From assembly GCA_029258515.1 (NCBI GenBank), contig JARHYK010000001.1:68450-132449 (forward strand): a DNA stretch of 64,000 bases, in the 5' to 3' direction. Under the pieces are notes generated by a model. It saw nothing but the letters and a program-made list of their open reading frames with translations. It was not told the origin of the DNA and made no database searches. The DNA comes from Clostridia bacterium. GTDB lineage: Bacteria > Bacillota > Clostridia > TANB77 > CAG-508. The translations under genes and the position numbers were made by a program. Position 1 is the first letter of the stretch. The number at the start of each line of letters is the position of its first letter. Shown here one piece after another: positions 36,551 to 54,211 of the stretch.

Positions 36551-36617
36551 GATCCTTTTAGGGACGTTCTTAAAAGGATTTCAAAATAATTCTTTATAAG
36601 AACGTCCTAAAAAGATT
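36551..36617. repeat. Two inverted copies of a ~29-31 bp palindromic interspersed repeat (GATCCTTTT(T)AGGRACGTYC...AAAAGGATC family) between pilC and tktB
   Basis: gatccttttagggacgttcttaaaaggat (36551-36579) and tctttataagaacgtcctaaaaagatt (36591-36617). Related copies at 49566-49596, 49662-49691 and 54181-54211. Confidence 0.7.
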
Positions 36618-36634
36618 AAGAAAGAAGGAAAAAA

Positions 36635-37558
36635 ATGAAAAACGAAAAAAAAGCAACACGTCAAAGCTATGGAGAAGCTTTGTTAGAGCTAGGAAAAGAA
36701 AATGAAAAGATTGTAGTATTAGATGCAGATTTATCAAAAGCAACAAAAACAAATATATTTGCCAAAGAATTTCCGAAAAGATTTTTTGATATTGGAATAG
36801 CAGAACAAGATATGTTAGGAACAGCAGCAGGACTTGCAACATGCGGTAAAATACCATATGTGAGCACATTTGCAATGTTTGCAGCAGGAAGAGGGTATGA
36901 CCAAATTAGAAATAGTATATGCTATCCAAATTTAAACGTAAAAATATGTGCAACACATGCTGGAATAACAGTAGGCGAAGATGGAGCAACACATCAAATG
37001 TTAGAAGATATATCTTTAATGAGAACTATACCAAATATGAAAGTAATATCAGTAAGCGATGATATTGAAACAAAATGGGCAGTAAAAGAAATATCAAAAA
37101 TAGAAGGACCTGTATATTTAAGACTTTCAAGACTAGCAACAAATATAATATATGAAGAAAATCAAAAATTTGAAATTGGAAAAGGAATTGAAATAGGAAA
37201 TGGAACTGATGGAACAGTTTTTGCGACAGGCGTAACTGTTAGCCAAGCATTAAAAGCAAAAGAAGAGTTAAAAAAACAAGGAATAAATATTAGAGTAGTA
37301 GATATCCACACAATAAAACCAATTGACAAAGAATTAATCATAAAATCAGCAAGAGAAACTAAAAAATTAGTATCAATAGAAGATCATAATATAATAGGTG
37401 GACTAGGAAGTGCAATATCAGAAGTATTAACAGAAAATGAGCCCAAAAAATTAATAAGACTAGGAATAAAAGATACTTTTGGAAAATCAGGAAAAGCAGA
37501 AGAATTGATGGAAAAATTTGAAATAACTTCTAAAACAATAATTAAACAGTTTATTTAG
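36635..37558 (+). CDS. tktB: Transketolase, C-terminal subunit (split-type tkt)
   Basis: 307 aa. Pyrimidine-binding and C-terminal domains (GEDGATHQ, IRVVD...). No N-terminal subunit gene adjacent in the window. Confidence 0.8.
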   Translation: MKNEKKATRQSYGEALLELGKENEKIVVLDADLSKATKTNIFAKEFPKRFFDIGIAEQDMLGTAAGLATCGKIPYVSTFAMFAAGRGYDQIRNSICYPNLNVKICATHAGITVGEDGATHQMLEDISLMRTIPNMKVISVSDDIETKWAVKEISKIEGPVYLRLSRLATNIIYEENQKFEIGKGIEIGNGTDGTVFATGVTVSQALKAKEELKKQGINIRVVDIHTIKPIDKELIIKSARETKKLVSIEDHNIIGGLGSAISEVLTENEPKKLIRLGIKDTFGKSGKAEELMEKFEITSKTIIKQFI

Positions 37559-37748
37559 AAGTATGTGAATTTTTTGTGAAATAAAAAAATATTTAAAATT
37601 AAAAAACTTGAAAAAATAAGCAAATAAGGAAAAAAAAAGAAGAAAAACCACAAAATAAATAGAAAAAAAGTATTGCAAAAAATGAAGATTATTGTTATTA
37701 TATATAAGAAATAAGATAACGTAATTAACCCCGAAAGGAATGTAATAA

Positions 37749-38435
37749 ATGATAGAATTTAGAAATGTATGTAAAACATATGATACAGGAACAAAAGCAC
37801 TAAAAAATGCTAATTTCAGAATAGAAAAAGGAGAATTTGCATTTTTAGTAGGTTCATCAGGAAGTGGAAAATCAACCTTGATGAAATTAATATTAAAAGA
37901 AGAAGAACCAACATCAGGAAACATAATAATAAATGGAAAAGATACAACATTTTTAAAACCAAATAGAGTACCTTTTTTAAGAAGGAGTATGGGAGTTGTA
38001 TTCCAAGATTTTAGACTTTTACAAGATAAAACAGTATATGACAATGTAGCATATGCAATGTATATAGTAAGAGCAACACCAAGACATATTAGAAGACAAG
38101 TACCAATGGTTTTATCACTTGTAGGATTAAGTAATAAAGCAAAAATGTATCCAAATGAATTATCAGGAGGAGAACAACAAAGAGTAGCATTAGCAAGAGC
38201 TCTTGTAAATAATCCATCAATGCTAATAGCAGATGAACCAACAGGAAACTTGGATCCAGATACAGCATGGGACATAATGAATTTATTAAATGATATTAAT
38301 TTAAGAGGAACAACAGTAGTAGTTGCAACACACGCAAAAGATATTGTAGATAAAATGAAAAAAAGAGTTATAGCTATAGATAAAGGCAGCATTGTAAGAG
38401 ATGATAAAAAAGGTGGGTATAATCGTGAGATATAA
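37749..38435 (+). CDS. ftsE: Cell division ABC transporter ATP-binding protein FtsE
   Basis: GSSGSGKST, LSGGEQQR, IADEPTGNLD. Confidence 0.9.
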   Translation: MIEFRNVCKTYDTGTKALKNANFRIEKGEFAFLVGSSGSGKSTLMKLILKEEEPTSGNIIINGKDTTFLKPNRVPFLRRSMGVVFQDFRLLQDKTVYDNVAYAMYIVRATPRHIRRQVPMVLSLVGLSNKAKMYPNELSGGEQQRVALARALVNNPSMLIADEPTGNLDPDTAWDIMNLLNDINLRGTTVVVATHAKDIVDKMKKRVIAIDKGSIVRDDKKGGYNREI

Positions 38436-39321
38436 CAGATTAGGATATTTAATAGGAGAAGGATTTAGTAATATATTTAAAAATAAAAAATCAACAGGGG
38501 CATCACTTATGATAATGTGTGCAACAATGATAATTTTTGGTGTATTTTTAATACTAGGAGAAAACATAAATAAATTTGTATCAGATATCAAATCAGAACA
38601 AGGATTTCAAGTATTTATAAAAGTAGATGCAACAGATGAAGAAATAAAAAAAGTAGAAGAAGAAATAAGAAAACTAGATAATATAAGTACTGTAGAATTT
38701 GTTTCAAAACAAGATGGATTAAACATAATGAAAGAAAGGCTAAAAGAAAAAAAAGGTGTATTAGATGGGTTTAATATAGATAGAATAAAAGCTTCATATA
38801 TGGTAAAAGTAGATAAACTAGAAAAAAGTAAAGAAATCCAAGACAAAATTCTAAAAATGGACAATGTAGCCAAAATAACAAGTAGTGATGAAACAATAAC
38901 AACATTAATAAATTTAGCAAAAGGTGTTAGAATTGTAACAGGAGTTATACTTCTATTATTAGTAGTAATTTCAATTTTCATAATAGCAAACACAATTAAA
39001 TTGACAATGCACGCAAGAAGAAAAGAAATATCAATAATGAAATACGTAGGAGCAACAAATGGCTTCATAAGATGGCCTTTCATCGTAGAAGGTATGATAA
39101 TAGGAATAGTAGCAAGTTTAATATCAATATTAATAGTAGGAGGGGTATATAATCTAATTGCAAAACAATTAATAAATACATCTTTTATAAAACAAATAGG
39201 AATGAACCTAGTTGGATTTAGTGATATGATAACGACAATAATAATAGTATATATGCTTTTAGGAATGGGAATAGGTGTTATAGGAAGTATGATATCTATG
39301 AAGAAATATTTAGAAGTATAA
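38401..39321 (+). CDS. ftsX: Cell division permease-like protein FtsX
   Basis: Four-TM FtsX topology with a large extracellular loop. The probable true start is GTG 38425 (RBS AAAGGTGG), which overlaps the ftsE end. Confidence 0.85.
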   Translation: MIKKVGIIVRYNRLGYLIGEGFSNIFKNKKSTGASLMIMCATMIIFGVFLILGENINKFVSDIKSEQGFQVFIKVDATDEEIKKVEEEIRKLDNISTVEFVSKQDGLNIMKERLKEKKGVLDGFNIDRIKASYMVKVDKLEKSKEIQDKILKMDNVAKITSSDETITTLINLAKGVRIVTGVILLLLVVISIFIIANTIKLTMHARRKEISIMKYVGATNGFIRWPFIVEGMIIGIVASLISILIVGGVYNLIAKQLINTSFIKQIGMNLVGFSDMITTIIIVYMLLGMGIGVIGSMISMKKYLEV

Positions 39322-53663: not shown

Positions 53664-53770
53664 GATACAAAATTATGTAAGGTATGATGTAATTATAATC
53701 TTATAATAATCAAGGAGTTTTGAATATACTTAAAACTCATTGATTATGTTAAAATTATGAATATTTATTA

Positions 53771-53795
53771 AAAATAAAATAAAATAAAATAAAAT
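53771..53795 (+). repeat. (AAAAT)5 pentanucleotide repeat
   Basis: aaaataaaataaaataaaataaaat upstream of the promoter-like TTGACT...TAATAT for 53869. Confidence 0.6.
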
Positions 53796-53868
53796 ATCAT
53801 AAGATACTTGACTTCTAACTAAAAAAAATAGTAATATAAATATAACGTATAAAAAAGGAGCAAATAAG

Positions 53869-54192
53869 ATGTTAGAAAAAGGAAGATTTACAGAAATTGA
53901 TGAAGAATTCATATGTGAAAATTGTGGAAAAAAAGTAACAAAATTAGGATATTCTTGTAGAAATCATTGCCCATATTGTTTACATTCAAAACATGTTGAT
54001 AAAAATCCAGGAGATAGAGAAGAAACATGTCAGGGGGATTTAGAACCAATAGGATTAGAAATAAACAATAAAAAAGGATATGTAATAATATTCAAATGCA
54101 AAAAATGTGGAGCAATAAGAAAAAATAAAGCAGCAAAAGATGATAATATGGATTTAATAATAGAATTATCAAAAGGAAATGATCCTTTTTAG
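53869..54192 (+). CDS. RNHCP-domain zinc-ribbon protein (hypothetical)
   Basis: CENCG...CRNHCPYC...CKKCG cysteine pairs. RBS AAAGGAG. Confidence 0.55.
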   Translation: MLEKGRFTEIDEEFICENCGKKVTKLGYSCRNHCPYCLHSKHVDKNPGDREETCQGDLEPIGLEINNKKGYVIIFKCKKCGAIRKNKAAKDDNMDLIIELSKGNDPF

Positions 54193-54211
54193 GAACGTCC
54201 CAAAAAGGATC
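54181..54211. repeat. Palindromic interspersed repeat copy spanning the stop codons of two convergent genes
   Basis: gatcctttttaggaacgtcccaaaaaggatc. It contains the TAG stop of 53869..54192 and the TGA stop (minus strand) of the U32 gene. Confidence 0.7.

Follow-up and report, generated by a model that had tools for sequence, protein, structure and literature searches.

A probably mobile, REP-like family of short palindromic hairpins at gene ends in uncultured, AT-rich Clostridia

REPs are well studied in Proteobacteria, and the surveys of GTAG/CGTC REPs (PMC3733652) and of class 2 TnpA (PMC6006769) report no such elements from Clostridia. GTAG-type REPs carry a conserved GTAG (GT[A/G]G) tetranucleotide at one end, and REP termini are able to provide the stop codon of a flanking ORF (PMC3733652). 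The CGTC-type REPs display a terminal CGTC, an 8-9-bp stem, a 4-5-nt loop and a CCA tail, and no dedicated transposase is known for the CGTC-tagged REPs, which include Neisseria dRS3 and Rickettsia RPE-4/6 (PMC3733652). The family of palindromes described here was previously uncatalogued and occurs in a group of uncultured, very AT-rich Clostridia.

The window is the whole 64-kb stretch of DNA that was analysed; its own genome is denoted W, two syntenic relatives are denoted R and T, and 7 contigs of one metagenome (M) were also included. Pattern searches of the window returned a total of five copies of a 31-35-nt palindrome (Table 1). All five hairpins claimed in an earlier note on this DNA were thus recovered, with slightly corrected coordinates, and they lie in both orientations as that note had claimed, the orientation being set by an asymmetric core. 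A degenerate 19-mer matched the window 8 times against 0.64 expected from shuffles, a gapped pattern of arm, core and arm matched 5 times against 0.00 expected, and the 21-nt core with up to 2 mismatches matched these five sites only. These numbers are so far above expectation that chance cannot explain the five copies. Copies A and B, described previously as an inverted pair past pilC, are separated by a 7-nt spacer and do fold together, and copy B adjoins the next gene, lying 17 nt upstream of the start at 36635 of an ORF for the C-terminal half of a transketolase. Copies C and D are also spaced as an inverted pair, with a 67-nt spacer. In R, T and the metagenome, copies mostly stand alone. 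Copies B and C are strongly decayed, and decay at an approximately neutral rate was seen in four of the five window-genome copies. Copy C is identical to its R orthologue at 26 of 35 positions, which is about the neutral rate; its homology is proven by the orthologous intact copies in two related genomes.

Table 1. Members of the palindrome family, neighbouring features of the window and insertions specific to R
Feature	Position	Core	Strand	Remarks
Copy A, CGATCCTTTTAGGGACGTTCTTAAAAGGATTT	36550..36581	36551-36581	+	S orientation; 5 nt past the pilC (T2SSF) stop; nhmmer E=1.7e-8
Copy B, decayed	36588..36618	36588-36618	-	S orientation on the - strand; inverted partner of copy A; core with 2 mismatches; E=0.07
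A/B inverted doublet (REPIN-like)	36550..36618		+	Single long hairpin, -27.3 kcal/mol, z = -5.5
Copy C, GTAACCATTTTTGGAACATTCTTAAAAAGAATCAC, decayed	49562..49596	49564-49594	+	Overlaps the rpe stop; orthologous to intact R and T copies
Canonical bidirectional intrinsic terminator	49609..49642		.	Between copies C and D; not a family member
Copy D	49660..49694	49662-49692	-	S orientation on the - strand; E=3e-9
Copy E, ATGATCCTTTTTGGGACGTTCCTAAAAAGGATCAT, intact	54179..54213	54181-54211	-	E=5.5e-13; -23.3 kcal/mol, z = -5.8
RNHCP TAG stop	54190..54192		+	Inside copy E; preceding D-P-F codons are the element arm; ORF 53869-54192
U32 peptidase TGA stop	54210..54212		-	TGA of the arm (GTGATCC/ATGATCC); ORF 54210-56693
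Hairpin AATCTTTTTTGCTTGATTTACAAAAAGGATT	24178..24208		-	Directly past the spoVAC stop; family-like arms; without the GGGACG core
R insertion, ctpB				AAA TAA to AAG TGA TCC...; S-sense
R insertion, PNP_UDP				TTA TAA to TTA TGA TCC...; S-sense
R insertion, 24-aa ORF				GAA TAA to GAA TAG TGATCC...; S-sense
R insertion, feoB				Native TAG retained, element after it (TAG, then CGATCC)

The sense (S) orientation used here is the reverse complement of the consensus in the earlier note. In this orientation, the alignment of 25 copies gives the unit (G)TGATCC TTTTT GGGACG NN YY AAAAAA GGATCA(C) YAAA, in which YAAA is either the tail of the element or a preferred target, so that the consensus ends are approximate. 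The palindrome spans 31-35 nt within a unit of about 35-40 nt and consists of a near-perfect stem of 12-16 bp and a loop of 3-6 nt. The 5′ half of the apex, GGGACG, is conserved and its 3′ half is free, and a short A-rich tail follows, which on the S strand is A-rich in 22 of the 25 copies. The palindromic sequence itself is conserved beyond its structure, with a near-perfect dyad. Meanwhile, the flanks of different copies bear no relation to each other, leaving a single palindromic unit without modules. In the preferred orientation the RNA hairpin has an energy of -15 to -21 kcal/mol. The S strand is the better folder in 16 of 21 copies (mean difference -2.3 kcal/mol), since positions that are A.C mismatches on the opposite strand pair as G.U on this one. 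That several master copies lie behind the family is suggested by apex subtypes that recur (TTCT, CTCC and GGCT).

It had been stated beforehand that the similarity would be a chance one of local terminators if only these copies existed and the corresponding positions of related genomes held unrelated sequence. What was found is the reverse: about 20 further copies occur outside the window, in the 7 metagenome contigs and in R and T, and two window copies have orthologues. In total, 25 independent loci were collected from about 215 kb of family-bearing DNA (window and relatives). The metagenome contigs were chosen for containing copies (13, with invariant arms), and density was instead taken from unbiased syntenic DNA, where it is 1 per 5-13 kb, any genome-wide number being an extrapolation. 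R displayed 6 full copies and 2 variants in 36 kb, T displayed 3 full copies and 2 variants in 42 kb, and the outgroup had one variant and zero full copies in 65 kb. In more distant relatives there are hairpins with the same T-run, GGGACG and A-run but different outer arms (L159, and L158, where the hairpin is at the 3′ end of pilC). The specific gapped pattern gave 0 matches in viral contigs. On genome contigs, the 19-mer half-site ATCCTTTTTARGAAYRTYC gave at least 118 single chance matches in unrelated phyla, and the full palindrome occurred in none of those listed. In the metagenome scan, 21 of 28 loci were unrelated single hairpins and were set aside as not belonging to the family.

The alignment of W, R and T revealed four R insertions at stop codons for which the sites are empty in T and W (Table 1), and T has a specific copy of its own at obg. 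As the four R insertions are absent from the same sites in the other two genomes, the element is mobile, which bears out the earlier proposal of a miniature mobile element. The C-terminus is unaltered at the three S-sense insertions of R. Meanwhile, the rpe copy is common to W, R and T and is intact in R and T, and the U32/RNHCP copy has a core-less orthologue in both relatives. The presence/absence comparison that had been called for yielded a clean natural experiment: across three syntenic genomes, the sites at given genes are filled, empty, decayed or core-deleted. Two orthologous R/T copies displayed 0 differences over about 68 stem and motif positions (p < 1e-5), against an identity of 80% at third codon positions and 84% in intergenic DNA in the neutral comparison of R and T.

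An insertion-site preference immediately after stop codons, which the earlier note had put forward for checking, is evident: a stop codon is 6 nt away or less at 15 of the 25 loci (p ~1e-7 to 1e-9). Both arms read T-G-A inward, and in 9 loci an arm triplet is the stop of the gene, this being TGA except in decayed copy C, where it is TAA; the rpe stop within copy C is thus TAA in the window versus the TGA of the arm in R and T. Orientation matches the abutted gene in 14 of the 15 copies that abut a stop (p = 0.001); over all 25 loci the figure is 19. A replication-strand bias was rejected as the source of this pattern, since orientation flips with gene strand inside single contigs. The claim that the copy at 54181 supplies the stops of two convergent genes also held, with the TAG of RNHCP inside the element and the TGA of the U32 gene on the minus strand coming from its arm. 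The outgroup U32 gene has TAA at the codon where the window has the TGA of the arm, and the C-terminus of RNHCP is an arm-encoded KDPF or NDPF versus EMNK in the outgroup. The last four RNHCP codons have been replaced by the element arm, in agreement with the idea that the element has sculpted gene ends. In addition, a conserved Cys-rich ORF of 62 aa (49654-49842, minus strand) takes its last 12 codons (NPFLDVLKKDQS*) from copy D. Some placements are atypical: two copies (L127 618 and L138 4073) lie in 5′ or divergent (promoter) regions, which a pure 3′-end function fails to cover, and the R feoB copy sits 5 nt before a -35 box. A bacterial SECIS was considered and rejected, since the same codon is TAA in element-free orthologues, the proteins end at the same residue and the hosts are unrelated housekeeping genes. 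The attC, CRISPR and dif readings were also rejected.

A related hairpin had been reported between spoVAC and spoVAD. The hairpin is present (Table 1), but its membership of the family is not supported by its sequence, which lacks the core and gave no match to the family HMM. A search for SpoVAD homologues did not have the R and T orthologues among its matches, and L159 (GC 32%, too distant) had no hairpin at the spoVAC-spoVAD junction.

We also searched for an enzyme that could mobilise the element. Among the roughly 165 kb checked for Pfam domains, out of the family-bearing DNA sampled, no RAYT/IS200 transposase was found, and Y1_Tnp was absent from the Pfam lists of the syntenic loci and from the 20 ORFs scanned in window 0-25 kb. 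No transposase was found near copies: the ORFs that copies flank are of housekeeping type or encode small membrane proteins, with SmpB, UPRTase and DUF1836 among them. A REPtron, with a small ORF between inverted copies (L135, L127, L138), was rejected, as these ORFs encode membrane proteins, DUF1836 and UPRTase. A target-site duplication (TA) was likewise rejected, being inconsistent across copies, with none consistent at the four R-specific empty/filled sites. Rfam returned nothing at gathering level in the window except one tRNA elsewhere in it, and a permissive Rfam search gave generic hairpin matches only, far below threshold. A literature search for the sequence string of the element gave no useful match.

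Based on these findings, we postulate that the palindromes are probably a clade-restricted family of short REP-like interspersed elements that are mobile and land on stop codons. The element would multiply by copy and paste with no evident target-site duplication, landing at or a few bases from a stop codon and bringing an in-frame stop, such that the host protein would be unchanged or altered in its last residues only. It would end up in the 3′ end of the transcript of the upstream gene, mostly in the orientation of the more stable RNA hairpin. The stems in R and T are held under strong constraint, and four of the five copies of the window genome are decaying relics; the intact copy E, as the only hairpin there, is the probable shared terminator of two convergent genes. 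The existence and spread of the family, its lineage-specific gains, the supply of stops, the biases of orientation and strand and the conservation are direct observations. Mobilisation may proceed through a single-stranded hairpin intermediate handled by a mobilising enzyme. At the RNA level, the element might protect 3′ ends and/or exert an effect coupled to translation termination, and we infer that it functions as a 3′-end RNA hairpin. The strong conservation of old copies is unlike a purely selfish element, and either a host function or gene conversion is needed to account for it.

This conservation brings up a reading in which the palindrome serves the host as a cis-regulatory RNA hairpin, namely a 3′-end module that binds a protein or stalls ribosomes, whose sequence is kept by selection and whose spread is secondary to this function and not due to selfish transposition. 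The invariance of the R/T stems and GGGACG apex against neutral divergence, the recurrence of the inner hairpin with other outer arms in the distant relatives and the coincidence of the mRNA strand with the stable strand would all fit such a module. There is a precedent as well: E. coli REPs less than about 15 nt from a stop reportedly lower expression through stalled ribosomes and tmRNA (Liang, Rudd and Deutscher, 2015). However, no theme unites the host genes, which are unrelated housekeeping genes; most copies of the window genome decay as if neutral; occupancy differs between close relatives at the same genes; and some copies are antisense or in 5′ regions. Hence, we regard this reading as rather unlikely. 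An unlikely further reading goes beyond mere tolerance at gene ends: the element would be a host-co-opted, stop-codon-seeking mobile hairpin, moved by a non-RAYT enzyme that reads the GGGACG loop, and it would act in translation termination or 3′-end formation of the abutted gene, for instance through ribosome stalling and tmRNA tagging or through 3′-end protection. Such an element would account for the exact swap of TAA to TGA, the gene-linked orientation and the strong purifying selection on individual old R/T copies.

Look-alike intrinsic (rho-independent) terminators, spread or converged because they terminate well, are a quite improbable source of the family. The earlier note had proposed a terminator role, and this was retained for copy E only, which resembles a terminator on the - strand, carries T-rich tails on its two strands and is the sole hairpin between the convergent RNHCP and U32 genes. 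It alone among the five window copies passed the terminator scan, and the family in general does not display the G+C-containing stem with a U-tract directly after it that defines an intrinsic terminator. Downstream of the hairpin in its preferred sense orientation comes an A-rich tail (C-Y-A-A-A) instead of U's. A T-run does follow many copies in antisense orientation, but on that other strand the T-runs correspond to Lys codons of the gene that is abutted. The element at rpe has a canonical bidirectional terminator, separate from it, downstream in W, R and T, which shows that the element is not the terminator there.

The near-perfect dyad and a sequence conserved beyond structure would also be expected of operator sites for a dimeric DNA-binding regulator or a nucleoid/segregation protein, forming a regulon or a chromosome-organising array, and the few promoter-region copies mentioned above point the same way. 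We find this very improbable, as most copies lie on or just past stops or between convergent genes, the strands are non-equivalent, which is unexpected for a symmetric double-stranded DNA site, and copies are gained and lost between close relatives at housekeeping genes. Finally, the adjacent type IV pilus genes, with one doublet directly past pilC, raised the idea of a DNA-uptake signal of the Neisseria/Haemophilus type, for which inverted pairs in terminators are frequent (PMC1852404); this is almost certainly wrong, since such signals are 9-12-mers over-represented genome-wide at about 1 per kb, mostly single and also intragenic, whereas the arm 9-mers here are essentially confined to palindromes (GATCCTTTT occurs 3 times in 64 kb, always in copies), the density is far lower and no copies lie inside genes.

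These findings describe a hairpin element that lands exactly on stops and supplies its own TGA, with the last codons rewritten in RNHCP and in a small Cys-rich protein. They also carry a warning for annotation: repeats are the source of part of the stops and C-termini in these MAGs, and assemblies break at copies, as seen in several metagenome contigs that end at one. If the reading with a host function were true, the family would offer a tractable example of how a mobile element is domesticated into a 3′-end or translation-termination module, and a mobilising enzyme other than the known RAYTs would be implied.

How the element relates to known families can be judged feature by feature. It shares with intrinsic terminators a stable hairpin at gene 3′ ends, and it differs from them in that most copies have no U-tract in the preferred orientation and the sequence is common to unlinked loci. 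BOX is modular (boxA-boxB(n)-boxC, about 100-200 nt) and RUP, a MITE of 107 nt, has terminal inverted repeats. The small interspersed repeats of Firmicutes (pneumococcal BOX, RUP and SPRITE) are intergenic and co-transcribed with their neighbours (PMC3049150). The element resembles these as a small interspersed intergenic repeat in a Firmicute, but it consists of one palindrome of about 35 nt, without modules and with no duplication seen. It is therefore not a BOX element. MITEs, including RUP-like ones, have the terminal inverted repeats of an IS plus a target-site duplication and typically span 100-400 nt, which sets them apart from this unit of about 35-40 nt. The ends of IS200/IS605 and their miniature derivatives (PATEs) are similar in being hairpin-based and asymmetric, with conserved sequence beside or within the hairpin, no target-site duplication and a short conserved insertion flank, which for the element would be TTT(A/G)G (C-Y-AAA on the opposite strand). 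Unlike them, the element is one hairpin of about 35-40 nt and not two different subterminal hairpins, and no TnpA was found in the DNA checked. CGTC-tagged REPs are also short palindromes that contribute codons to ORFs, and CGTC is present in the element, but at the apex (as the reverse complement of GGGACG) and not at the end. Its stem of 12-16 bp versus 8-9 bp, the YAAA in place of a CCA tail and the different phylum also place it outside the CGTC type.

The element comes close to the REP/BIME/REPIN elements of Proteobacteria, GTAG-tagged repeats that are mobilised by RAYTs, Y1 HUH transposases whose genes are flanked by REPs. The differences are these: in the 25-copy alignment the ends are (G)TGATCC and GGATCA(C)-YAAA (GTGATCC/GGATCAC) with no terminal GTAG, the stem is longer and nearly perfect, no RAYT was seen in the sampled DNA, the host is a low-GC Clostridia lineage, and the element sits on stop codons with great precision and in an orientation biased towards that of the gene. 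Like REPs, the element is a short (20-40 nt) imperfect palindrome that is interspersed in many extragenic copies, for the most part past the ends of ORFs and in the gaps of convergent or co-directional gene pairs. Its termini supply stop codons, and its occupancy varies between related genomes. In the window, copies A and B form an inverted doublet that folds as one long hairpin, and single copies prevail elsewhere. Of the REP/BOX-type character proposed earlier, the BOX part falls with the lack of modular structure, and the REP-like part stands on behaviour: this is a REP-like mobile hairpin family without GTAG or CGTC end tags.

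The five palindromes named in the earlier note are all present in the window, where a Hamming scan with a 31-nt consensus recovered each of them (copies A to E in the table). In this DNA of 26% G+C, the degenerate 19-mer matched eight times against 0.64 expected, and the arm-core-arm pattern five times against 0.00 expected. An alignment of the copies in one orientation gave the consensus (G)TGATCC-TTTTT-GGGACG-NN-YY-AAAAAA-GGATCA(C)-YAAA. Two syntenic relatives (R and T) and the metagenome contigs show no variation in its outer stem or in the GGGACG that forms the 5′ half of the apex, and the four apex positions after GGGACG vary, with recurrent subtypes TTCT, CTCC, GGCT and TGCT. 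RNA folding indicated that in 16 of 21 copies the GGGACG strand is stabler than the complementary one (mean difference -2.3 kcal/mol), because it gains G.U pairs at positions that are A.C mismatches on the opposite strand; this strand is therefore called the sense (S) orientation, and the consensus given in the earlier note is its reverse complement. The A/B doublet folds into one long hairpin, like a REPIN. The hairpin reported between spoVAC and spoVAD as a relative does exist, directly 3′ of the spoVAC stop, but it has a different centre and no match to the family HMM, and its membership was not upheld. Another sequence, TTTTTTGGCACGCCCAAAAAA, covers both the stop codon of feoA and the TTG start codon of feoB; it shares the T-run/G+C core/A-run layout of the family, with a weak HMM match (E = 0.03), lies within coding sequence and may be due to chance. 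Four other perfect palindromes in the window are unrelated to the family and are probably terminators or operator-like sites.

Coordinates of the palindrome copies and of associated features
Feature	Sequence	Coordinates	Strand	Detail
Copy A	window	36551-36581
Copy B	window	36588-36618
Copy C	window	49564-49594
Copy D	window	49662-49692
Copy E	window	54181-54211
RNHCP gene	window	53869-54192	+	TAG stop within copy E
U32 peptidase gene	window	54210-56693	-	convergent to RNHCP; stop is the TGA of a copy E arm
spoVAC-spoVAD hairpin	window	24178-24208
feoA/feoB family-like sequence	window	51529-51550
Unrelated palindrome	window	16393-16445		23-nt arms
Unrelated palindrome	window	9147-9184		19-nt arms, no spacer
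Unrelated palindrome	window	22705-22736		16-nt arms
Unrelated palindrome	window	7869-7904		17-nt arms
Two-ORF feoB	window	51533-53663
Cys-rich ORF	window	49654-49842	-	62 aa
Split nth	window	49869-50508	-
Split nth	L149	11650-12292
Split nth	L150	11539-12181
Split nth	L155	16176-16815
A-rich microsatellite	L149	11026-11377	reverse
A-rich microsatellite	L150	11069-11280
A-rich microsatellite	L155	15610-15910
Site corresponding to microsatellite	window	50782-50891		no such tract
Region with antisense copy upstream of smpB	L135	1123-1689
GATCC-less hairpin after pilC	L158	11347-11375
GATCC-less hairpin	L159	about 20740-20780	-
52-nt palindrome	L134	2959-3010
52-nt palindrome	L137	899-950

Copies beyond the window were found in R, in T and in seven contigs of one metagenome co-assembly. 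A genome-wide scan with too short a pattern gave chance matches only, among the matches listed. The specific gapped pattern had no match in viral contigs and 28 loci in metagenomes, seven of which are contigs of co-assembly SAMEA104404097 (G+C 23-25%); the other 21 were rejected as unrelated single hairpins. Between them, these seven contigs hold 13 copies, whose arms are invariant and whose apex varies. Three of the contigs have an end no more than about 100 nt from a copy, and in two of these the distance is at most 20 nt. Syntenic DNA was reached via homologues of the window U32 and PilC proteins in R (ERZ27291707; U32 78% and PilC 91% identical; loci L149 and L156, 36 kb), in T (ERZ23500325; 75% and 87%; loci L155 and L157, 42 kb) and in an outgroup clade, O (67% and 80%; G+C 28%). 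The sampled DNA of R holds six full copies and two variants, that of T three full copies and two variants, and about 65 kb of O held no full copy. An HMM built from 25 copies found no additional members in the window, metagenome-contig or syntenic DNA sampled, and no Rfam family matches the palindrome. Two unrelated metagenome contigs (G+C 32%) each showed one copy of a 52-nt perfect palindrome, atgaaaatatccATCCTTTTGGAACATGTCCCAAAAGGATggatattttcat, whose arms and core resemble the family.

The preference for stop codons raised in the earlier note is pronounced: at 15 of 25 independent loci the stop codon of a real gene is no more than 6 nt away, against 10-15% expected by chance (p about 1e-9 to 3e-7). 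At nine of these 15 the arm TGA is itself the stop codon (TAA in the decayed copy C), and the ORF map bears out that copy E supplies the stops of both convergent genes. The copies are also oriented, being in S orientation relative to the abutted gene in 14 of the 15 stop-abutting cases (p = 0.001) and in 19 of 25 overall (p = 0.015). This bias does not follow from the requirement for a stop codon, since TGA reads inward from either arm, and replication direction does not explain it, since orientation switches with gene strand within single contigs. In the metagenome organism, an antisense copy precedes smpB by about 77 nt. SmpB is the partner of tmRNA, and stop-proximal REPs of E. coli are reportedly linked to trans-translation.

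Filled, empty, decayed and core-lost sites all occur among the window genome (W), R and T. The earlier note's suggestion of a mobile element gains support from four copies in R that are missing from T and W at the same sites, and that parsimony makes gains in R. The end of ctpB reads AAA TAA without the element and AAG TGA TCC... in R; the PNP_UDP gene changes from TTA TAA to TTA TGA TCC..., and a 24-aa ORF from GAA TAA to GAA TAG TGATCC.... At feoB, R reads TAG|CGATCC... and T has a different intergenic sequence. T has its own copy 3′ of obg. No target-site duplication was consistent across the compared sites.

Other sites are shared. The copy 3′ of rpe is common to W, R and T; its arm TGA is the rpe stop in R and T, with 35 nt identical between them, and in W it has decayed (TAA CCA...; 26/35 identical to R, about the neutral rate). 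At the U32/RNHCP junction, W has the full copy E, and only the arms, TGATCCTTTTTTAAAAAGGATC, are left in R, T and a third contig; the core has therefore been lost there. In O, a 381-aa gene lies between U32 and RNHCP, and U32 ends ...REI TAA. RNHCP ends EMNK in O versus an arm-encoded (N/K)DPF in W, R and T, so the proposed sculpting of gene ends holds. The pilC-tkt junction is filled in every lineage compared, with the inverted doublet A/B in W, in R and T a full copy and, in addition, a pair of arms enclosing an AT-rich insert, and in O a hairpin with the same T-run/GGGACG/A-run without GATCC arms. In more distant relatives, the hairpins that share the T-run/GGGACG(G)/A-run and lack GATCC arms read TGTTTTTGGGGACGGAGCAAAAAAACA, directly 3′ of the pilC stop (L158), and CGTTTTGGGGACGGTTCTCAAAACG, in a divergent promoter region (L159). 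These may be family progenitors, or an older functional hairpin.

An A-rich microsatellite, built of AAAAAAG/AAAAATA units and reaching about 250 nt, adjoins the R-specific copy after the conserved 24-aa ORF, and two R-like contigs and T differ in its length. The endonuclease III gene (nth) is split into a 118-aa HhH-GPD ORF and a 97-98-aa FeS-cluster ORF with an 11-nt overlap; the split recurs in R (both contigs) and T (118 + 86 aa). Being conserved, it does not stem from a sequencing error, and may reflect a programmed frameshift or a truly split gene. The feoB gene also consists of two ORFs, of 467 aa and then 210 aa (FeoB_C/Gate), about 95 nt apart, as it does in R and T (469 + 227/203 aa; 461 + 188 aa). 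A Cys-rich ORF (CSQNC...GKCSYNIVC...DCAYF) without a Pfam match has conserved counterparts in R and T. In the window, copy D makes up the last 12 codons of this ORF; the tail is different in R and T. GATC is scarce in the window (49 observed vs 110 expected, second-order model; six of the 49 within repeat copies) and in the outgroup (14 vs 33), suggesting that GATC-specific restriction or methylation pressure may act in this lineage.

R and T are 80% identical at third codon positions and 84% in aligned intergenic DNA. Their two orthologous full copies show no differences at about 68 stem and motif positions (p < 1e-5), all changes being confined to the free apex. This conservation is not expected of a purely selfish, neutrally decaying element; it requires host-level function or homogenisation between copies. 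The window genome presents the opposite picture, as B and C are heavily decayed, A and D lightly, and E alone is intact.

The best-supported reading of function is a 3′-end hairpin that would be transcribed and would protect the RNA end and/or act on terminating ribosomes; we infer this RNA role. The element would spread through a hairpin intermediate, presumably with the help of a mobilising enzyme. The terminator role proposed earlier applies, among the window copies, to copy E, the only one flagged by a terminator scan and the sole hairpin (-23.3 kcal/mol) between the convergent RNHCP and U32 genes. The other window copies have no U-tract on the sense strand and an A-rich tail, and at rpe a canonical bidirectional terminator stands 3′ of the element in W, R and T; the family is therefore not, taken together, a group of terminators. 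A role as uptake signal is argued against by the arm 9-mers, which have no singleton occurrences.

From the proposal of a REP/BOX-type small element, the REP-type part survives. BOX identity was rejected, as was membership in the tagged REPs, whose defining end tag is missing (no GTAG; CGTC at the apex only). Firmicutes are absent from the REP survey (PMC3733652), and class 2 (REP-type) Y1 transposases are sparse, without a Clostridia entry (PMC6006769). No Y1 transposase was detected in the sampled DNA (a small part of each genome), whether in the syntenic loci or in 20 ORFs scanned in window 0-25 kb; copy-flanked ORFs encode housekeeping or small membrane proteins. What sets this family apart is its precise placement at stop codons, its gene-linked orientation and its strong constraint in two relatives, together with the absence of a known mobilising enzyme from the sampled DNA. 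REPs are 20-40-bp palindromes, mostly downstream of ORFs and often dimeric (PMC3733652). The present family behaves like them, and its description as a REP-type small mobile element that has reshaped gene ends is supported.
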